Shown: positions 3,878-15,043 of the stretch, in pieces
How the letters are laid out: each line of letters opens with the position of its first letter
How positions within the stretch are numbered: position 1 is the first letter of the stretch
Assembly (NCBI GenBank): GCA_034520965.1
Contig: JAXHMY010000008.1
Coordinates: 96,001 to 160,000, forward strand
Direction of reading: 5' to 3'
DNA: 64,000 nt
From: Spirochaetia bacterium
GTDB taxonomy: Bacteria; Spirochaetota; Spirochaetia; DSM-16054; Sediminispirochaetaceae
The notes under the pieces: model-generated
Told to the model about the DNA's origin: nothing
What the model saw: the letters and a program-made list of their open reading frames with translations, nothing else
The model's database searches: none
Position numbers and translations under genes: made by a program

Positions 3878-5074
3878 GTGAAGTTGCAGAGGCTGGATAG
3901 GGTGGCACTGTTTGCCGCCTTATCACTTTTTTTGTCGATAATCGAACTTGTCATACCCAAACCAATCCCTTTTTTTAGGCTAGGCCTGGCCAATTTGCCG
4001 TTGTTAATTGCTCTGACTTTTTTTAATCGGCGTGAATTTGTGCTTCTGGTACTTTTAAAGGTCTTTGGGCAGGGGATTGTCTCCGGTACCCTCTTTTCAT
4101 ACGTGTTTTTATTTTCTGCAACCGGAAGTTTTTCCTCCGGTGCGGTTATGCTGCTGCTGCGCAGATGGTATCCAAAGGGAATCTCTCTTGTGGGAATCGG
4201 GGTAGTGGGAGCCTTCGCAAGCAATAGTGCCCAGCTGCTGTTTGCCTCGCTGTATATTTTTGGACGGAGTACCTGGCTGATTGCACCACTATTTTTACTG
4301 ATTGGAACTGTCAGCGGGATGATTCTAGGCGCTACTGCCGGCTATCTATTGCAGCATTCAAGATGGCTGGCGGTTATGCCGGTTGAAGAGTCGCCGGACC
4401 AGCCTTCCCAGCCTCCAAAACATGAAAAACATGCGGAAAAGATGGATGCACCCGTTGTGCGGGTTACACCCATGGTCCGGCTCCTCACCGGTTTGTTGAT
4501 GATTGCTCCTTTTATAATGCAGCCTCAGATTCTCCTCAAGTTTGTCCATATTCTGCTGTTTGGTGTGGCTTCTCTCTACCTGGGAAAGCGTGTGCGAATT
4601 CTTCCCGGAATAATGATAGCTGCCGCAGTAACCGGAGCCCAATTGTTGACTCCTCTAGGCGAGGTGCTTACCTACATCGGCTCCTTCCCGATTACCGCTG
4701 GGGCCCTCCGGCAGGGTGTGCTGCGGGGGCTGAACTTGGTGGGATTGGTATATTTGTCACGGTATGCGGTTTCTTCGGGGCTGCCGATCCCCGGGAAATT
4801 GGGTGCGCTTCTCTACAGGGTGTTTTATTACTTTGAAGAATTGACTGCCTATAGGGTGGTACGGGACAGGAGTACCGGTTTTCGGGGGAATATCAAACAG
4901 GCTCTTATGGGAATAGACGGTTTTTTATTGGAGCTTTCGCTTTCATCAGCAGGAGCAGCTGAAGGCAGAGCGGCAAAGCTGGTTATGCCGGGACTCGGTG
5001 TCCATATAATACTGCCATTGGTGGGTGTAGGGCTCCATTGGATTCTATATGCGGTCGGGTTTGTATATTTATGA
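3878..5074 (+). CDS. Gx transporter / heptaprenyl-diphosphate synthase component I family membrane protein with C-terminal membrane extension
   Basis: N-terminal LSIIE..IPKPIPFFRLGLAN, SLVGIGVVGA..SN..QL motifs; hydrophilic linker, then a second hydrophobic domain. Confidence 0.75.
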   Translation: MKLQRLDRVALFAALSLFLSIIELVIPKPIPFFRLGLANLPLLIALTFFNRREFVLLVLLKVFGQGIVSGTLFSYVFLFSATGSFSSGAVMLLLRRWYPKGISLVGIGVVGAFASNSAQLLFASLYIFGRSTWLIAPLFLLIGTVSGMILGATAGYLLQHSRWLAVMPVEESPDQPSQPPKHEKHAEKMDAPVVRVTPMVRLLTGLLMIAPFIMQPQILLKFVHILLFGVASLYLGKRVRILPGIMIAAAVTGAQLLTPLGEVLTYIGSFPITAGALRQGVLRGLNLVGLVYLSRYAVSSGLPIPGKLGALLYRVFYYFEELTAYRVVRDRSTGFRGNIKQALMGIDGFLLELSLSSAGAAEGRAAKLVMPGLGVHIILPLVGVGLHWILYAVGFVYL

Positions 5075-5102
5075 AAAGGAGTATAAAATTTCGGCTGTTG
5101 TA

Positions 5103-5131
5103 TTGACATAGTTGTAGAGTACTGTTAGCGT
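5103..5131 (+). promoter_or_regulatory. sigma70-type promoter of the ilv-leu leader
   Basis: TTGACA (5103-5108), 17 nt, TAGCGT (5126-5131) preceded by TGn extended -10. Confidence 0.65.
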
Positions 5132-5174
5132 TCTTGTAACTATAAACTTTCACTTATTCTGAGGAGAATGCAGT

Positions 5175-5378
5175 ATGCAGAACGCAATAATGAACGTGAT
5201 GACCGCTATTTCAATTTCTATTATCGCCCTCATCATCATTATTATTGTTGCAAGTCTGTCTCTCCTAATTACCAACCTGCTACTAAGCCTATCGGGCATT
5301 ATTATTCTACTAATTAGTGGAGCTCGAGGTGAGTTCCATTGTTCCTGCCGTAGTAATACGGCCCCTGCACACTGCTAA
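5175..5378 (+). CDS. putative ilv-leu operon leader (attenuator) peptide
   Basis: SD GAGGAG 5161-5166; 15 Ile, 10 Leu, 2 Val in 67 codons; 6 of 10 Leu are CTA; directly upstream of ilvB. Confidence 0.8.
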   Translation: MQNAIMNVMTAISISIIALIIIIIVASLSLLITNLLLSLSGIIILLISGARGEFHCSCRSNTAPAHC

Positions 5379-5570
5379 ATAGCAGCCCGCAGCGGGAAAA
5401 GCATAGGAACAATGAAGCTACCTCGACTCATCCACCCTGGTTATAGGTATATCTAAAGTATAGATATGCAGGTAACCGGGGACCGGTATATCCTAAAGTC
5501 GAGAGCTGCTGCCGATTGTTCCTCCTTTTCTCACTCCTGCGGGAATGTCTTAAATTGAGAGGAGGAGAGG
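5322..5570 (+). promoter_or_regulatory. alternative-pairing RNA switch with anti-Shine-Dalgarno for ilvB
   Basis: Mutually exclusive complementarities 5324-5346/5405-5426, 5386-5427/5498-5543 and 5522-5533/5556-5567. Confidence 0.7.
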
Positions 5571-7238
5571 ATGAAAGGCGCGAGAATACTGGTTGAAGCA
5601 TTAAAAAAAGAGGGAGTTGATACTCTTTTTTGTTATAACGGCGGGGCCGTTATTTCGATTTTTGATGAGCTTTACACCCACGGTAAAGAGATCAATTTAA
5701 TCCAGCCCCGGCACGAGCAAGGGGGAACCCATGCTGCTGATGGGTACGCCCGTTCAACCGGCAAACCGGGGGTTGTATTAGTAACCTCCGGTCCGGGGGC
5801 TACCAATACCATCACCGGTATTGCTACCGCATATATGGATTCGGTGCCCTTGGTGGTGTTTACCGGGCAGGTGTCTACCGGAATGATAGGGACCGATGCG
5901 TTTCAGGAAGCTGATACGGTGGGCATCACAATGCCCATTACTAAAGCCAACTTTCTGGTAAAGAACGTAGAGGAACTTGCTTCTACGGTGAAGAAGGCCT
6001 TCCATCTGGCTATCACCGGCAGACCGGGTCCGGTGGTTGTGGACATCCCCAAGGATGTTCAGATGGACGAGACCGATTTTTCCTACCCCCTTACTCCCGA
6101 CTTGCCCGGATATCGGCCCAAGGATAGCGGCCATCCTCGCCAAGTGAAAACCCTGAAAAAATACCTTCATGAAGCCCGTAAGCCGGTGGTCATCTCCGGT
6201 GGAGGGGTAAACAGCGCCGGAGCAACCGAGCTGATGAACGAGTTCTGTGATCGCTACGGTGTACCGGTGGTGACAACTCTGCTGGGCCATGGAGTTTCCC
6301 CACAGCATGAAGAGCTCAATTACGGACCAATCGGAATGCACGGTTCTCTGTACGGTAACTATGCCCTGCAAAATTGTGACCTGCTTATGGCATTCGGGAC
6401 CCGCTTCTCCGACCGTATTATGGGGGATCCCGATGTGTTCGCCGAACAGGCTCGAATTGTTCACGTAGATATTGATGCTGCAGAAATCGGAAAGAACATT
6501 TCTGTTGATTTGCCGATAGTGGGGCCGATTTCCGGTGTGTTGGAGGAGCTCAACCGCGAGGAGAGCTACGCTGACTATTCCAAGTGGGTAGAAGAACTCC
6601 GAGCATACCGTAGCGAAAACCCCCTCGAATTTGATCAAAGCGATGTTTTAAAGCCGCAATACCTTATCCAACTTGCACAGAAGTACTTTCCCGAAAATAC
6701 CATAGTAGCCTCCGATGTAGGCCAGAACCAGATGTGGGTGGCTCAGTACTTTCACTTTCATCGCGGCCGTCGTCTGCTTACCTCCGGAGGCCTTGGTACA
6801 ATGGGCTACGGCCTGCCTGCGGCTATTGGTGCTGCAGTTGGGAACCCGGATGCCCAAGTACTGACGGTATCCGGGGATGGGGGCTTCCAAATGAATATGC
6901 AGGAAATGGCTACCGTGAAGCAGTACGGGCTGAAAGTAAAAATGCTGGTTCTGGACAATAGTTGCCTCGGTATGGTGCGCCAGTGGCAGCAGTTGTTATT
7001 TGATAAGCGCTACTCAGGTACATGCATGAATGATAACCCGGATTTCGGCTTGATGGCAAAAGCAATGGGTATTCCTTCATTGAAGCTTGAAAAAGTTTCC
7101 GAGGCCGAGCAGACAATGAAGGCCTTTGCCGAGAGCGAGGGGAGTATGCTGCTGCATGCCGTGATTGAGGGCGAAGAGAACGTGGTTCCGATGGTACCGG
7201 CGGGAAAACCTTTAGATAAAGTAATTCGCAAAATCTAG
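5571..7238 (+). CDS. ilvB: acetolactate synthase large subunit
   Basis: RHEQGG.HAADGYAR, TSGPGATN, TSGGLGTMGYGLPAAIGA, GDGGFQMN, LGMVRQWQ. Confidence 0.95.
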   Translation: MKGARILVEALKKEGVDTLFCYNGGAVISIFDELYTHGKEINLIQPRHEQGGTHAADGYARSTGKPGVVLVTSGPGATNTITGIATAYMDSVPLVVFTGQVSTGMIGTDAFQEADTVGITMPITKANFLVKNVEELASTVKKAFHLAITGRPGPVVVDIPKDVQMDETDFSYPLTPDLPGYRPKDSGHPRQVKTLKKYLHEARKPVVISGGGVNSAGATELMNEFCDRYGVPVVTTLLGHGVSPQHEELNYGPIGMHGSLYGNYALQNCDLLMAFGTRFSDRIMGDPDVFAEQARIVHVDIDAAEIGKNISVDLPIVGPISGVLEELNREESYADYSKWVEELRAYRSENPLEFDQSDVLKPQYLIQLAQKYFPENTIVASDVGQNQMWVAQYFHFHRGRRLLTSGGLGTMGYGLPAAIGAAVGNPDAQVLTVSGDGGFQMNMQEMATVKQYGLKVKMLVLDNSCLGMVRQWQQLLFDKRYSGTCMNDNPDFGLMAKAMGIPSLKLEKVSEAEQTMKAFAESEGSMLLHAVIEGEENVVPMVPAGKPLDKVIRKI

Positions 7239-7249
7239 GAGGAAAAACA

Positions 7250-7767
7250 ATGGGTGAAGATAAAAGTACTTATACAGATCATGTAATTTCAATGCTGGTT
7301 TTTAATCATCCGGGAGTGTTGTCAAAGATTACCAGTTTAATTACACGGCGGGGATTTAACATCGACAGTATTGCCGCCGGGCCGACCAAAGAGAAGGATA
7401 TGTTCCGGCTCACTATTATGGTAAAGGGGGATGATCGGAGTATCGAACAGATCCAGAAGCAGTTATATAAGATTGTGGACACCTTCAAAATTATGACTAT
7501 CCACCCGGCTCGGAAGGTTGAGCGTGAAATCGGCCTGATCAAAGTGAAGGCTCCGATGGAAGAGCGAAACGAGGGCTGCAGATGGTAAAATGTATTCAAA
7601 AGGTTCAGATACCTGACTCAAGTACCAGTCGGTTTGTTGTTGGATAACCAGAGCAGTGATGAGGTCGATTGCTTTATCAGTTTGTTTCCACTGTTAATCA
7701 GATTGTGGAAGTCGCCAGGACAGGAATCGTGGCGATGGATCGTTGGGAGAAAAACGGTGCATCTTGA
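7250..7767 (+). CDS. ilvN: acetolactate synthase small (regulatory) subunit, frameshifted
   Basis: N-terminal [26 protein letters not shown]-terminal [14 protein letters not shown] in another frame ending TGA 7765-7767; indels between about 7570 and 7700. Confidence 0.85.
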
Positions 7768-7810
7768 GGTGCAGTGGGAAGCAATAAAATTAAAATTTAA
7801 GGAGAAAAAA

Positions 7811-8804
<994 letters not shown>

Positions 8805-8814
8805 GGAGATAGAT

Positions 8815-10494
8815 ATGAGCAATCAGGTAAAGGTGTACGATACGACCCTGCGGGACGGCGCTCAGTCGGTGGGGGTTACCTTTCTCTCTGCATGATGAAG
8901 TGCGGTGATGGAAGCCCTTGATGATATGGGGATGCACTATATCGAAGCCGGTTGGCCCGGTTCGAATCCGAAGGATGCGGCTTTTTTTGAGGCCGCCCAG
9001 TCCATACGGCTGCGTAACTCACGCTTAGCTGCTTTTGGTTCAACCCGTATGAAGAATACCAAAGTTGAACAGGACCGCAATCTGGACTTGCTGCTGCGCA
9101 GCAATGTGCCGGTGATTACCATTTTCGGAAAGTCCTGGGATCTGCATGTGCTTGAGGCGTTGGGGACAAGTCCTGAGGAGAACCTGGAGATGATTTACTC
9201 TTCCGTACGTTACTTAAAATCGCGGGTGGATGAGGTAGTGTTCGATGCCGAGCACTACTTCGACGGAGTGAAAGCGAATCCCGAGTACGCCTTTGCCACT
9301 TTGAACGCAGCCGCGGAAGCCGGAGCGGATTGGCTGGTGCTGTGTGATACCAATGGAGGTACTCTCCCGGACGCCTTCCAGCGTGAGACAGAGAAGGTTA
9401 TCGACCGCTACTCTTTGCCGGTCGGCGTTCATGCGCATAACGATTCTGATTCGGCTGTAGCAAACTCACTTTTAGGGGTGGGAGCCGGTGCGCAGATGGT
9501 GCAGGGAACCATTAACGGTTTAGGCGAGCGATGCGGGAACGCAAACTTGTGCAGTGTAGTGCCGAATTTGAGCCTGAAACAGTCCTATTCAACGGTCGGT
9601 GAGGAGAATATCCGCAAACTGCAGAAGGTCTTCTCCACTTCTCGTATCGGAGATGTCGAATACTACCCCGATCGAGCACATGCCCTTTGTGGGACAGCAT
9701 GCTTTCAGCCATAAGGGGAGAATTCGTGTATCAGCGGTACGCAAAAACCCCCTGACCTACGAACACATTGACCCCGAGCTGGTCGGAGACAGTCGTTTTA
9801 CCACTGTCTCAGAGCTCTCGGGAAAGAGTAATATTATTGAAAAGACTAAAAATATGGGTCTTGGTCAGGAGTTGAGCGGTGAGGCAGCCGGCAAAATTGT
9901 GGAAAAGGTAAAAGAACTGGAGTCACAGGGCTATCACTTTGAGGGTGCGGAAGCCTCCTTCGAACTTCTATCGGCCGCTCTGATGGGTTCACTGAAAGAG
10001 TACTTTACCCTGCACGGGTACCGAATTATGATCTGGAACAATGGGGACGGGAATACCTGGTCTGAAGCTACTATAAAAGCCTCTGTTCCGGAGGATGTGT
10101 CCCATCAACAGGGTCACAGTGAAGCTGTTGAACACACCTCTGCCGACGGCAGCGGACCGGTTGAGGCCTCTGGCAGAAGCCGCTGGAAAGGCGCTGGAGA
10201 AAATTTCATCCGCATATTAAGAATACCCGCCTTACCGATTACAAGGTGCGTATTTTGAACGAGGAATCGGGAACCTGCGCACTTACTCGGGTAATCATAA
10301 ATACTTCCGATGAAGAGACCAGCTGGGGAACAGTGGGAGTTTCGGAGAACATAATAGAGGCCTCATGGCAGGCTTTAACCGATTCTCTCATTTACAAATT
10401 GAAAAAAGACGAAGCCAAACGGGCTGCTGACGGCGAAAAAACAGATGCGTCAGTCGATAATGGAAAGGAGCATGTATATGGGACGATATCTTAA
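8815..10494 (+). CDS. cimA: citramalate synthase, several frameshifts
   Basis: YDTTLRDGAQ at 8836; YIEAGWPGSNPKD, GKSWDLHV, FDAEHYFDG, LCDTNGG, GERCGNANL, VSELSGKSN, FEGAEASFEL, WGTVGVSENIIEASWQAL across four frame segments. Confidence 0.88.
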
Positions 10495-12067
10495 AATTTT
10501 TGATACCACATTACGCGATGGTGAACAGTCGCCGGGGGCCTCAATGACCCTCGATCAAAAGGTGGAAATGGCCGAGGCCCTTGAGAGCCTCGGGGTGGAT
10601 GTCATTGAAGCCGGATTTCCGGTTTCCTCCAAGGTTCAGTTCGAGGCGGTACGCCGCGTTGCCGGAACCCTCAAAAAGGCAGCGGTGGTCGGCCTTTCGC
10701 GCTGTGTAAAAAAGGACATTGATATCACCTACGAAGCGGTGAAAGATGCGGTGCATCCGATGCTGCATCTCTTTATCGCCACCAGTCCGCTACACCGGGA
10801 ATTTAAACTAAAAAAGGACCGCAGTCAGGTACTCGAGTCGATTGCAACGCACCTCGATTATGCGCGTCAGTTTTTTAAGCGTATAGAATTTTCACCTGAA
10901 GATGCATCCCGCACCGAAACTGATTTTTTGTTAGAGGTGATTAAAACAGCGATCGCCCACGGGGCAACTACCATCAACATTCCCGATACCGTGGGCTTTT
11001 CCATGCCCGACGAGTTCGGACAGTTAATTGAGAAGCTGGTGAAGGAAGTTCCGGAATTCCAGAGCGGTGCTGTTGATCTTTCAGTGCACTGTCACAACGA
11101 TTTAGGCTTGGCAGCCGCCAACTCTCTTGCTGCGGTAAAGGCCGGTGCAAGCCAGGTTGAAGTAACCTTGAACGGGATCGGTGAACGGGCCGGAAATTGC
11201 GCCTTGGAAGAGCTAGTGATGGGGCTGGAGGTGCGCCGTGACCTCTACAATGTGGATACCCACATACAAAAGGAGTATCTGTATCCAACCGGAAAACTGC
11301 TGCAGAACCTGACCGGGCTTCTGTTCCAACGGAACAAACCTATTTTTGGGGACAACGTGTTTACCCATGAGTCGGGAATACATCAGCATGGGGTCCTCGC
11401 TCACCGGGAAACCTACGAAATTATGAATCCCAATACCATCGGCCGTCACAGTGAAAGCCTGGTAATGGGACGCCATTCGGGAAAGCACGCACTCCAGGAA
11501 AAACTGCGCCAGTACAATATCCGTCTATCCGAGGAGCAGTTCCAGAAGGTGTTTGAACGTTTTGCGGAGATAGCGGACAAGAAAAAAGAGGTCTACGATG
11601 AGGACCTGTTCTCGATTGTCTCCAATGTGCTCGGTGGAACAATCGACGGGTATCGGATGCCCTATTTTCATGTGTACACCGGTAATACCTTGATTCCTTC
11701 GGCGACGATTAAGCTGACCGAGAAAGACGAGGAGTATATCGCCTCCGCCACCGGTGACGGTCCGGTTGATGCGGTGTTCAATGCTATCGATAAGTGTTGT
11801 CACATCAAGACCAGACTTGAAGAGTACATTATTCAAGCAGTTGGTTCCGGTAAAGATGCGCAGGGACAAGTAAAATTGATGCTTGAAATTGAAGATGAGT
11901 TGTTTGCCGGGAAGGCTTCCTCGACGGATATTGTTGAAGCATCGGCTCTAACGTATTTGAATGCAGTGAACCGGTATGTTCTTAAGCGGCTTTCCAATGG
12001 GCATTCAGGGGGAGACGCGCAGGATTCTCAGATGGCTGAAACCACCGGTAAGGGCCGGGCAGAGTGA
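10478..12067 (+). CDS. leuA: 2-isopropylmalate synthase
   Basis: IFDTTLRDGEQSPG, HCHNDLG, GIGERAGN, HESGIHQHG, regulatory domain GDGPVDA; SD AAGGAG. Confidence 0.95.
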   Translation: MGRYLKIFDTTLRDGEQSPGASMTLDQKVEMAEALESLGVDVIEAGFPVSSKVQFEAVRRVAGTLKKAAVVGLSRCVKKDIDITYEAVKDAVHPMLHLFIATSPLHREFKLKKDRSQVLESIATHLDYARQFFKRIEFSPEDASRTETDFLLEVIKTAIAHGATTINIPDTVGFSMPDEFGQLIEKLVKEVPEFQSGAVDLSVHCHNDLGLAAANSLAAVKAGASQVEVTLNGIGERAGNCALEELVMGLEVRRDLYNVDTHIQKEYLYPTGKLLQNLTGLLFQRNKPIFGDNVFTHESGIHQHGVLAHRETYEIMNPNTIGRHSESLVMGRHSGKHALQEKLRQYNIRLSEEQFQKVFERFAEIADKKKEVYDEDLFSIVSNVLGGTIDGYRMPYFHVYTGNTLIPSATIKLTEKDEEYIASATGDGPVDAVFNAIDKCCHIKTRLEEYIIQAVGSGKDAQGQVKLMLEIEDELFAGKASSTDIVEASALTYLNAVNRYVLKRLSNGHSGGDAQDSQMAETTGKGRAE

Positions 12068-12075
12068 GGGAGAAT

Positions 12076-13368
12076 ATGAGCACAGAAGACCAGAAACAGA
12101 CTCTCACCGAAAAGATTTTCAGCGACAAAGCCGGACGAGTTGTGAAGGCCGGCGACTACCTGCTGCTGGATGTTGACGTTGCTTTAGGCAATGATATCAC
12201 GGCGCCGGTAGCAATCAAGGAATTCGAAAAATTCAAAGGCCGCCGGGTATATGATCCGGAGCGGGTCGTGTTTGTAGCCGACCATTTCACACCCAATAAG
12301 GACATCCAGTCGGCGATGCAGGTAAAGATGGTTCGCGATTTTGCCCGGGCCCACGGTATTAAAAACTTTTTTGATGTGGGGAAGATGGGCATCGAACATG
12401 TGCTTTTACCGGAACAGGGTTTGGTGAAGTCGGGGGATCTGGTAGTTGGTGCCGATAGCCACACCTGTACCTACGGCGCTCTGGGAGCATTTTCGACCGG
12501 GGTGGGGTCAACCGACCTGGCGGGGGTGTTTTTTACCGGGAAGGCGTGGTTCAAGGTACCCGAGGCAATCCGGGTAGAGCTAAAAGGGCAGTTTTCACCG
12601 GGAGTATCCGGAAAAGATCTTATTCTGCATCTTATCTCTCTGCTGGGGGTCGACGGGGCTAATTATCAGGCTCTGGAGTTCACCGGGCCGGGAGTTGCGG
12701 CAGTAAGTATGGACTCTCGGTTTACCGTCAGCAATATGGCAATCGAAGCTGGAGGAAAGGCGGGCCTGTTTCCGGTAGATGCCGTTACCCAAGCCTATGA
12801 GGATGCTCGGGGTATAAAGGTTACTCCACGCAGCGCCGATGAGGACGCCGTGTACAGCCGCAGCATAGAAATTGATTTAAGTACTCTAGAACCAACGGTC
12901 GCCCGCCCGTTTCTGCCGGATAATGGCGCGACTATCAGCAGCTTGACTGCAGAAAAGATAAAAATTGACCAGGTGGTCATAGGCAGCTGTACCAACGGCC
13001 GGATCGAAGACCTGCGGGCTGCTGCGGCGGTGTTGGGCGATGAGCCGATAGCCGAAGGCCTGCGCTGCATCATTCTGCCCGGATCGCAGGAGGTGTATCT
13101 GCAGGCCCTGCGGGAGGGATTAACTGAAAAATTCGTAAGTGCCGGCTGTGCATTTTCAACCCCCACCTGTGGTCCCTGTCTGGGCGGACATATGGGTATT
13201 TTGGCTGCGAAGGAGGTGGCGGTCTCTACCACCAACCGTAACTTTGTCGGCCGAATGGGTCATTCCAGCAGTGAAGTCTACCTTGCATCTCCCGTGGTTG
13301 CTGCAGCCACTGCTGTAAAGGGCTATCTGTGTGGCCCGGATGCTGCGGCCCTCGAGAGGCTGACATAG
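12076..13368 (+). CDS. leuC: 3-isopropylmalate dehydratase large subunit
   Basis: GADSHTCTYGA, IGSCTNGR, CGPCLGGH, STTNRNFVGRMG. Confidence 0.93.
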   Translation: MSTEDQKQTLTEKIFSDKAGRVVKAGDYLLLDVDVALGNDITAPVAIKEFEKFKGRRVYDPERVVFVADHFTPNKDIQSAMQVKMVRDFARAHGIKNFFDVGKMGIEHVLLPEQGLVKSGDLVVGADSHTCTYGALGAFSTGVGSTDLAGVFFTGKAWFKVPEAIRVELKGQFSPGVSGKDLILHLISLLGVDGANYQALEFTGPGVAAVSMDSRFTVSNMAIEAGGKAGLFPVDAVTQAYEDARGIKVTPRSADEDAVYSRSIEIDLSTLEPTVARPFLPDNGATISSLTAEKIKIDQVVIGSCTNGRIEDLRAAAAVLGDEPIAEGLRCIILPGSQEVYLQALREGLTEKFVSAGCAFSTPTCGPCLGGHMGILAAKEVAVSTTNRNFVGRMGHSSSEVYLASPVVAAATAVKGYLCGPDAAALERLT

Positions 13369-13455
13369 AGGCTGACATAAAGTCTGAATGAAGGATGCGC
13401 CGCATTTGAGTTGGAGAGAAGAGAAACGCAATAAACGAAAAGAGTGAGGATATAA

Positions 13456-13974
13456 ATGATACGAGAAGGTAAGGTCTTTAAGTTTGGAGACCACATAAAC
13501 ACCGATGAGATTATTCCGGCCCGTTATCTGGCCACCACCGACCCTGAAGAGCTGGCAAAGAACTGTATGGAGGATGCCAGGCCGGGTTTCGGGCGGCGGG
13601 AGGATGTGTCCGGCAGCATTATGGTGGCCGGCGAGAATTTTGGCTGCGGCTCATCCCGTGAGCATGCACCAATAGCGATAAAGGCTGCCGGAATTCAATG
13701 CGTAGTTGCAAAGAGTTTTGCCAGAATTTTTCTGCGAAACTGCATTAACATTGGGCTTCCGATTGTGGAACTGGATCAGACCGATACAATAGAAGAGGGA
13801 AATTACCTCAAAATAGATTTTAATGCTGGACAGGTATCAAATATTAGCCAGGGTACAGAGTATACTACCAATACTTACCCGGAGTTTCTGCAGCAGATTA
13901 TTCACAGCGGTGGTTGGCTGACCTATGCTACCACTAACCTGGCTCCTAAATGGGTTCTGGAAGGGGAGCGTTGA
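13456..13974 (+). CDS. leuD: 3-isopropylmalate dehydratase small subunit
   Basis: INTDEIIPARY, NFGCGSSREHAP, SFARIF.RNCINIGL. Confidence 0.93.
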   Translation: MIREGKVFKFGDHINTDEIIPARYLATTDPEELAKNCMEDARPGFGRREDVSGSIMVAGENFGCGSSREHAPIAIKAAGIQCVVAKSFARIFLRNCINIGLPIVELDQTDTIEEGNYLKIDFNAGQVSNISQGTEYTTNTYPEFLQQIIHSGGWLTYATTNLAPKWVLEGER

Positions 13975-13975
13975 A

Positions 13976-15043
13976 ATGAAATATAAGATAGCGGTTTTAC
14001 CTGGTGATGGAATCGGGCCTGAGGTGATGGAGGCTGCCCAAAGGGTACTTGCAGCGGTGAGCAAAAAGTTTAACCTCCAGTTTGAGTTCAGCTACGGACT
14101 TATCGGAGGGGCGGCTCTGGATGCGGAAGACACCCCCCTTCCGGAGGAAACCCTTAAACTGTGCCGCAGTGCCGACGCAGTCTTGCTGGGCAGTGTCGGG
14201 GGCCCCAAATGGGATACCCTCCCGCCGGAAAAGCGACCCGAACGGGGCGGTTTATTAGCCCTGCGGAAACAGCTGAATCTGTTTGCTAATTTACGGCCGG
14301 TGCGGGTGTATCCGTCCATTTCTCACCTCTCTCCTCTCAACAGCCGCCGTCTTGAAAACGGGGTGGATCTGTTGACGGTCCGGGAACTTTCCGGCGGTAT
14401 CTATTTTGGTGAGCCGAAAGAAAAGGGCGATACGAGTGGACTGGATACTATGTACTACGACAAGCAGACTATCAGTCGAGTAGCCAGGCTTGCCTTTGAG
14501 GCTGCCGGTCGCCGGCGGAATAAGCTTACTTCGGTTGATAAGGCAAACGTGTTGTACAGTTCGCTTTTATGGCGGGAGACTGTCGAGGAAATAGCTCCCG
14601 AGTATCCGGAGGTAGAACTGGATCATATGTATGTCGATAACGCGGCTATGCAGATGATCGTCAACCCGGGGCAGTTTGATGTAATTCTCACGGGAAACCT
14701 GTTTGGGGATATCCTGTCCGATGAGTCCGCCGCCCTGCCGGGTTCGCTGGGGGTCTTGCCCTCGGCCTCGCTGGGTGATTCGGTACATCTGTTTGAACCG
14801 GCCGGCGGATCGGCACCGGACCTTGCCGGACTGGACAAGGCTAATCCGGTGGCACAAATATTATCGGCGGCCATGATGTGTGAGTACGGATTGGATTTAC
14901 CCGATGCGGCTGCAGCTATCCGAGAAGCGGTTGAGCAGAGTTTTACTGAAGGAATCTGTACTGCCGATTTACTCTCCGGTTCCGAAAGCCCGGCGGCCGG
15001 TACCACCCAGGTTGCTCGGGCGATTGCAGGGTATATCAAATAG
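13976..15043 (+). CDS. leuB: 3-isopropylmalate dehydrogenase
   Basis: LPGDGIGPEV, VGGPKW, RELSGGIYFG, SVDKANV, NLFGDILSDE, EPAGGSAPD. Confidence 0.95.
   Translation: MKYKIAVLPGDGIGPEVMEAAQRVLAAVSKKFNLQFEFSYGLIGGAALDAEDTPLPEETLKLCRSADAVLLGSVGGPKWDTLPPEKRPERGGLLALRKQLNLFANLRPVRVYPSISHLSPLNSRRLENGVDLLTVRELSGGIYFGEPKEKGDTSGLDTMYYDKQTISRVARLAFEAAGRRRNKLTSVDKANVLYSSLLWRETVEEIAPEYPEVELDHMYVDNAAMQMIVNPGQFDVILTGNLFGDILSDESAALPGSLGVLPSASLGDSVHLFEPAGGSAPDLAGLDKANPVAQILSAAMMCEYGLDLPDAAAAIREAVEQSFTEGICTADLLSGSESPAAGTTQVARAIAGYIK

Follow-up and report, generated by a model that had tools for sequence, protein, structure and literature searches.

The ilvB-ilvN-ilvC-cimA-leuA-leuC-leuD-leuB operon in the 64-kb window (the whole stretch of DNA that was analysed, 64,000 nucleotides) is preceded by a long Ile/Leu-rich ORF, which is a real and conserved element, very likely regulatory, that acts like a leader-peptide attenuator but falls outside the terminator type. 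By analogy with the enterobacterial leu and ilv leaders, the initial annotation had taken this ORF for a ribosome-stalling sensor of Ile and Leu. The sensor part of this claim is well supported; the ORF appears to register the speed of ribosomes on Ile and Leu codons, because it is invariably linked to ilvB, its codons are biased towards CTA and ATT, it shows no protein-like conservation and it is accompanied by matching RNA switches. The enterobacterial analogy, however, failed for the output, as an intrinsic terminator is absent and the control is predicted to act on ribosome-binding sites. The features are collected in Table 1.

Table 1. Positions in the window of the leader, its predicted RNA segments and the operon.
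Feature	Position	Strand	Details
Probable sigma70-type promoter	5103..5131	+	TTGACA 5103-5108, 17-nt spacer, TG-n-TAGCGT 5123-5131
Leader Shine-Dalgarno GAGGAG, also 5' arm of H0	5161..5166	+	sequence, fold
H0	5162..5266	+	predicted; Shine-Dalgarno, AUG and first codons pair with Ile/Leu codons 19-31 (5230-5266)
Leader uORF	5175..5378	+	Ile-rich zone A (codons ~12-33) as 3' arm of H0; zone B, codons 35-47, CTA-Leu/ATT-Ile, largely unpaired
Segment 1 (codons 50-58), partner of segment 2	5324..5347	+	starts 9 nt past the last Ile codon
Two small conserved hairpins within the 1:2 domain, the second with the stop codon	5348..5385	+	fold; helix 3 98% paired
Segment 2 (core 5404-5414)	5386..5428	+	predicted to pair with segment 1 (OFF) or segment 3 (ON)
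Spacer hairpin between segments 2 and 3	5435..5481	+	fold; might buffer time or act as a pause site
Segment 3, including the anti-SD 5516-5533	5497..5545	+	fold
Segment 4, ilvB Shine-Dalgarno and start codon	5556..5574	+	pairs with segment 3 in the predicted OFF fold
Regulated operon ilvB-ilvN-ilvC-cimA-leuA-leuC-leuD-leuB	5571..15043	+	ORFs, family matches

Leader ORF and Codon Usage

The ORF list of the window gives the leader 67 codons, as had been claimed, and its GAGGAG is separated from the ATG by 8 nt; position 5161, given earlier as the start, is right for this Shine-Dalgarno sequence (SD) but not for the ORF, whose ATG is at 5175. Codons 12-47 contain 14 Ile, 10 Leu and one Val codon (25 of 36, the same count as in the initial annotation). 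CTA makes up six of the ten Leu codons, again as initially reported; its share of the Leu codons in 1275 long genomic ORFs is 6.2% (binomial P ~1e-5). The comparative analysis was based on 16 complete leaders from three genera, ten from the genus of the window (g1), three from g4 and three from g2, with the 5'-truncated L004 left out. When these leaders were pooled, Ile was encoded by ATT 168 times, by ATC 54 times and by ATA 16 times, Leu was encoded by CTA (65), CTC (35), CTG (14), CTT (7) and TTG/TTA (5), and the control region consisted of 39% Ile, 24% Leu, 14% Ser, 3% Val and 0.2% Phe. The view of CTA as the dominant control codon holds for the genus of the window, in which it accounts for 52 of 93 Leu codons, but is weaker in the two remaining genera (5 of 16 Leu codons in one, 8 of 17 in the other), where CTC is frequent. 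In the window leader, all six CTA codons are predicted to be unpaired and three of the four other Leu codons lie inside the hairpin H0; the choice of CTA is therefore not forced by structure. A Leu(CAG) tRNA, which bears on whether CTA and CTG share one tRNA, was detected only at a relaxed score, and the pattern search gave no match.

At the peptide level, non-synonymous differences were at least as numerous as synonymous ones in four of four close pairs of leaders. The peptide had no match in NCBIfam and no usable match in the ESM Atlas, and its only five database matches were near-identical; a database relative (P0003) is labelled Spirochaetota bacterium. These observations bear on the possibility that the ORF encodes a small membrane protein, or is non-functional, and stands before ilvB by chance. 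Such a reading can draw on the 36 mostly hydrophobic, transmembrane-like residues and on the presence of the sequence in protein databases. The hydrophobic stretch, however, is almost devoid of Phe, Trp and Met and has little Val, and the free drift of its amino acids, the missing NCBIfam match and the few, near-identical database relatives also speak against a protein. Moreover, the initial annotation had named as contrary evidence a small membrane protein that is unlinked to the ilv genes and free of codon bias; we found an ORF that always stands before ilvB and has a strong CTA/ATT bias, and we give the membrane-protein or chance reading hardly any credence.

Leaders of the arrest-peptide type, such as MifM and SecM, carry a conserved C-terminal arrest motif. 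Such a motif was absent from our leaders, whose C-termini vary between genera, and the H/N-C-S letters that the C-termini have in common follow the RNA pairing motif. Two further candidates were rejected: Cys sensing via the C-terminal Cys codons, as Cys is absent in L013 and its positions are variable, and frameshifting at a hungry ATT run, which was ruled out by eye because both shifted frames meet stops within a few codons. The covariance models of Rfam 15, including those of the T-box and the ppGpp riboswitch, gave only two chance matches (E 2 and 3.8), both within ilvB. We are highly confident that the ORF is a real leader that senses branched-chain amino acids (BCAA), and it likely reports the levels of charged tRNA-Ile and tRNA-Leu. 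Its Ile and Leu content fits the operon, because cimA together with leuCDB yields the Ile precursor and leuA together with leuCDB yields Leu.

Distribution of the Leader

An orthologous ilvB was present in 15 of the 16 other family genomes searched, and all 15, as well as the genome of the window and the metagenome locus L131, have an Ile/Leu-rich uORF of 54-67 codons whose end lies 125-215 nt upstream of ilvB. The comparison proposed in the initial annotation, a search for BCAA-rich uORFs with CTA/ATT usage upstream of related ilvB genes, found it upstream of the orthologous ilvB in every one of the 16 family genomes in which that gene occurs, with the strongest CTA bias in the genus of the window. 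L131 was the one family-type locus among at least 160 ilvB matches listed, the others serving as an out-group control. A uORF with at least nine Ile, Leu or Val residues in 12 codons occurred at two of the 148 other-lineage ilvB loci among the matches listed, compared with 16 of 16 family genomes, which argues against chance. Since four relatives share the length of 67 codons and one has 66, this length is not an assembly artefact. In the sister family f30, whose ilvB belongs to the same clade, the leader was found at none of the eight loci (L012, L258-L264), two of which offered no more than 47 and 126 nt of sequence before the gene, and a promoter stands directly before ilvB. Judged from the sequences compared, the long leader is family-specific among the genomes searched. 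The f30 ilvB is often located behind the same upstream membrane-protein gene, minus the leader, which points to a gain or loss of the whole element.

Among the other ilvB-like loci that were sampled in the class, 19 of 54, a count that includes three of the family's own second paralogues, had an ILV-rich uORF with a hairpin and six or more T behind it. In the ten of these 19 short terminator-type leaders that were checked, the -35 box lies 31-44 nt before the start and an SD is missing, so that they look leaderless. Short ILV-rich terminator leaders were observed in many families of the class (L017, L019-L022, L025, L026, L211, L212, L217-L219, L229 and L247-L249). The second ilvB-like gene of the window's genome has a classical Val/Leu-rich leader of 38 codons with a terminator made up of a hairpin and T7 (G000:C7:108052-108168, minus strand), and a second ilvB-like gene with a classical Val/Leu leader was also seen in L242, L245 and L246. 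This would amount to a division of labour in one genome, with the Ile/Leu leader serving the citramalate-leucine operon and the classical Val/Leu terminator leader serving the second ilvB-like gene. No other operon of the genome was found to share the architecture of the long leader; of the 44 uORFs considered as candidates, the classical leader of the second ilvB-like gene and a leader of the Trp type alone were notable. A 30-codon uORF that looks leaderless and contains three Trp codons in tandem is followed by two serial terminator-like hairpins (G000:C9:241372-241464, minus strand), and the gene after it has an N-terminus that we take to be TrpB2-like. In L101, a record titled Archaeoglobus sp., a 28-codon ILV-rich uORF followed by a T-run lies ~117-30 nt upstream of an archaeal ilvB.

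Promoter, Transcript and Operon

The promoter that had been claimed upstream of the leader is probable: TTGACA is kept at a similar place ahead of all 16 complete leaders, although the extended -10 element in the window agrees with the consensus at only three of six positions and the promoter was not called by a consensus scan. Transcription is expected to start near 5138. Contigs from RNA libraries of relatives (80-95% alike) covered the leader in four of four runs and positions 5000-5135 in none; they started at 5164-5171 in three of the four runs, and one contig, 5171-6208, spanned the leader and ilvB. These contigs hint weakly at a transcript from the leader promoter, with DNA carry-over being possible. 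In two RNA-library runs the contig depth was higher for the leader than for ilvB, a measure that cannot rank the parts. Downstream, the ilv-cimA-leu operon was found as initially described. Its ilvN, ilvC and cimA genes are frameshifted in the assembly of the window (7250-10494), and these frameshifts are probably assembly errors of the long-read type; cimA is a single full-length open frame in three of the five relatives searched, the other two matches being partial and at or near contig ends, and contigs of a DNA run indicate an extra base at 8903.

Hairpin Predicted over the Leader's Own Start

The control codons are predicted to pair with the leader's own ribosome-binding site (RBS) in H0, which has a folding energy of -32.4 kcal/mol (z -4.0) that was matched by none of 200 shuffles and which is predicted in 16 of 16 leaders. 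The cost of opening the leader RBS was 14.2-25.2 kcal/mol in all 16 leaders, that is, in the 93rd-100th percentile of 250 genes of the genome (median 7.9). Per leader, this cost was reached by 0-4 of 30 synonymous recodings that drew on the family codon pool and by 0-3 of 30 codon permutations. With a ribosome placed at codons 15-25, it dropped to 2.5-10.2 kcal/mol, and by codon 40 it was back up. Real and recoded leaders could be told apart by the opening energy but not by the mean probability that the leader RBS is unpaired. Moreover, in a swap test from which L002, L003, L006 and L015 were left out as being close to kept sequences, the leader's own arm of H0 was better than the swapped arms in 12 of 12 cases, compared with 6 of 12 and 7 of 12 for control pairs, a result that is inflated by kinship. 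Within g1, none of the 15 consensus pairs of H0 had a change on both sides, and the RNAalifold consensus omits the pairing of the SD. It should also be considered that ATT, ATC and CTC codons by nature pair with AUG- and SD-like words. From these models, H0 is probably functional.

Predicted Switch between the Leader and ilvB

The whole leader folds better than its shuffles (z -6.9), and beyond the control codons the predicted fold comprises helices that exclude each other. Across the 16 leaders, segment 1 starts ~1-9 nt beyond the last control codon, and in helix 1:2 (5324-5347 with 5404-5428 in the window) 93-95% of the cells are paired across the ten g1 sequences. In the swap tests, subject to the same inflation by kinship, the own arms were better in 12 of 12 cases for 1:2 and in eight of nine for 2:3; the result for 3:4 was weak (seven of nine, with the small gap of -15.8 vs -14.4). 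The default fold is predicted to sequester the ilvB RBS and the alternative fold to free it, an effect that is weak in g2. In the window, the ilvB SD is predicted to be paired for each placement of the A site through codon 50 and open at 55-65. Similarly, the cost of the ilvB RBS drops by at least 3 kcal/mol only after the last control codon in seven of the ten g1 leaders, while in the other three (L008, L040 and L250) and in the g2 leaders L013-L015 most of the predicted opening has already occurred at the last control codon, which favours classical stall-driven attenuation; in L014 and L015 the cost only falls from 9.7 to ~7. In these two leaders, the ilvB start is TTG and its SD lies in the loop of a small hairpin common to both predicted states. 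Based on this modelling, we have good confidence that the control is exerted at the ilvB RBS.

No intrinsic terminator, i.e., a hairpin with a U-tract, was called or seen in the folds within 5378-5571. Nevertheless, helix 2:3 with its U-run could be regarded as an atypical intrinsic terminator with a long loop and 1:2 as its antiterminator, which would give the classical sign at the level of transcription. The geometry resembles that of the short spirochaete attenuators, in which stalling spares the antiterminator, and 4-7 T come after the 2:3 core in the majority of g1 leaders, L131 having 7. However, A residues further upstream pair with the T-run, the helix extends ~15 nt past it, L008 has no T-run, 2:3 is absent in g4 and no terminator was called in the leader. 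Such an antiterminator would also keep the ilvB SD buried in 3:4, and a terminator of this kind is very improbable. As regards control at the ilvB RBS, folding of nascent transcripts that do not yet include the ilvB SD gave 2:3 the advantage for most placements of the ribosome in the majority of g1 leaders; the OFF state therefore needs either 1:2 as a kinetic trap or a later win of 3:4.

Second ORF in Genus g4

In g4 (L009, L010 and L011), the segment-2 motif forms the RBS and the ATG of a second uORF that lies between the leader stop and ilvB. This ORF has 59, 48 and 40 codons, respectively, and although its sequence is poorly conserved, in three of three cases its end overlaps the start of ilvB in ATGA, for which the chance is ~0.04 each. 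The RBS of the second ORF is predicted to open only 4-6 codons past the last control codon in all three, its cost falling from 8.5-18.7 kcal/mol, when a ribosome occupies the last control codon, to 1.1-7.2 kcal/mol six codons later. The 2:3 pairing is absent in g4. Since the RBS of the second ORF is segment 2 itself, melting of 1:2 should mean ON here too, as it should in g1. For g1 itself, a second uORF was ruled out, as the candidates have 4-26 codons, are uncoupled in six leaders and lack the start motif in four.

Proposed Mechanism and Simulation

We propose a two-hairpin relay driven by ribosome traffic, in which H0 gates reloading and ribosome passage melts 1:2, with no terminator; on present modelling, this mechanism has about an even chance of being correct. 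With ample Ile and Leu, the first ribosome would leave the ORF before segments 2 and 3 are transcribed, H0 would close and reloading would stop, 1:2 and 3:4 would lock ilvB OFF, and Rho polarity would probably silence the remainder of the operon. When Ile or Leu is scarce, ribosomes would dwell on codons 12-33 or form a queue that reaches back into them, H0 would stay open and new ribosomes would load; each late pass over codons ~53-65 would melt 1:2, after which segment 2 would capture segment 3 and turn ilvB ON. In the g4 version, a late pass that melts 1:2 would lead to translation of the second ORF into ilvB, likewise giving ON. The doubled length of the leader would be explained, because one control block guards the leader's own start while the second delays and queues ribosomes. 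Fast translation alone would switch the operon ON, which is the wrong sign, and the model therefore needs H0 to limit reloading.

A toy stochastic simulation with assumed rates, which addresses feasibility only, gave an ON time of 2-3% when unslowed, ~30% at 5-10x slowing on Ile/Leu and 0.4% at 100x, whereas without H0 the ON time was 86% even when unslowed and there was no induction. Induction exceeded 3-fold in 24 of 24 parameter sets, either amino acid alone was sufficient, and zone A mattered more than zone B (0.50 vs 0.17). The broader reading falls just short of an even chance: the control codons would gate re-initiation on the leader and thereby form a positive-feedback traffic switch, passage through the helix and not stalling would turn the operon ON, and two outputs, an anti-anti-SD cascade and an ilvB-coupled second ORF, would coexist in one family.

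The same helices could serve classical translational attenuation of the ermC or Ms5788A type, in which a stall at codons 42-47 would unzip the base of 1:2, free a toehold and allow 2:3 to form, with H0 only limiting wasteful re-initiation. Segment 1 is close enough to the last control codon to be within reach of a stalled ribosome, opening at that codon is predicted in L008, L040, L250 and L013, and when this scheme was simulated, induction was 2.6-fold without H0 and far more with it. However, the 1:2 core is predicted to stay intact with a ribosome on any control codon in seven of ten g1 and three of three g4 leaders, and the majority of the control codons would be too distant on the upstream side to have an effect in this scheme. 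Classical attenuation is rather less likely than the traffic relay, but it is its main rival. Rho-dependent attenuation was also considered. Rho, which is present, would be enabled to load in rich medium by a ribosome-free, C-rich zone B and by the closed RBSs, stalled ribosomes would cover the site and the hairpins would be secondary. The largely unpaired zone B and the absence of an intrinsic terminator agree with this, and the accessible text on E. coli toiL-topAI provides a precedent for Rho acting downstream of RBS occlusion (PMC12121999). The C-richness, however, follows from the codons, the co-adapted 1:2 and 2:3 helices and the ATGA-coupled ORF of g4 would be left unexplained, and Rho is compatible with the traffic model as a downstream effect; as the main mechanism, it is improbable.

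If ribosome traffic is what the leader gauges, the response would be switch-like and could be read again on finished mRNAs with no terminator needed. The element is portable (~450 nt), and the traffic model implies that breaking H0 should leave it always ON and that a stop after codon 48 should leave it always OFF.

Comparison with Known Systems

The enterobacterial attenuators of ilvGMEDA, ilvBN and leu have an intrinsic terminator and leaders of ~30 codons. According to the accessible parts of the sources, the uORF of Corynebacterium ilvB-II is also of the intrinsic terminator type (PMC10272879), as is the 13-codon uORF of Listeria Rli60 (PMC5864092), and the uORFs of Listeria and Corynebacterium have 13-17 codons (PMC5864092, PMC10272879). 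The three systems resemble ours in having a BCAA-rich uORF before an ilv/leu operon and mutually exclusive helices. The spirochaete leader differs from them in its 54-67 codons, the absence of a terminator and its predicted output on ribosome-binding sites. The initial annotation knew of no characterised example in Spirochaetota; for Leptospira ilvB, however, there is a published prediction of a BCAA/Thr-rich uORF attenuator, as stated in the accessible text of PMC10272879, which builds on PMC8632094, and short terminator leaders occur at the 19 of 54 other ilvB-like loci mentioned above. The Leptospira motif is similar in that a BCAA-rich uORF is predicted before ilvB in a member of Spirochaetota, but it comprises seven representatives, is Val/Thr-rich and lies ~70 nt from ilvB, and a self-occluding hairpin or a relay is not described in the accessible parts of these two papers (PMC8632094, PMC10272879). 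Moreover, the accessible text of a leader-gene survey that included Spirochaetales contains no occurrence of 'ilv' (PMC4833913). Predicted BCAA leaders in Spirochaetota are thus not new, while a long leader of self-occluding translational design, with control codons that hide the leader's own RBS, was not found in the open-access literature, to which our search was confined, subscription papers being outside its scope.

Closer likenesses exist among systems that act on translation. In the mycobacterial polycysteine uORF Ms5788A (10.1101/834739) and the actinobacterial LEU element (PMC1262725), as far as their accessible texts go, a run of amino-acid codons in a uORF controls the initiation of downstream translation; the control codons pair with the downstream gene's SD and stalling opens it. 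In the spirochaete leader, by contrast, the predicted partner of the control codons is the SD of the leader itself, and the downstream switch is situated past these codons. The g4 arrangement resembles the relay proposed for ermA, from a first leader ORF (ermAL1) through a second one (ermAL2) to the main gene, in which, according to the accessible text, antibiotics induce arrest at both ORFs (PMC8274638). The second ORF of g4 differs in having no control codons and appears to be coupled through ATGA.

Single steps of the proposed relay also have counterparts. A downstream start is activated when ribosomes pass through a helix in the MS2 coat-replicase pair (the Min Jou helix) and in repY-repZ of IncI plasmids, and in the re-translation shut-down of the trp leader, the leader RNA limits its own re-initiation. 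To our knowledge, none of these precedents couples both steps to amino-acid sensing via control codons that act as an anti-RBS. In textbook attenuators a stalled ribosome covers or spares one helix, whereas the spirochaete leader appears to gauge the traffic of ribosomes.
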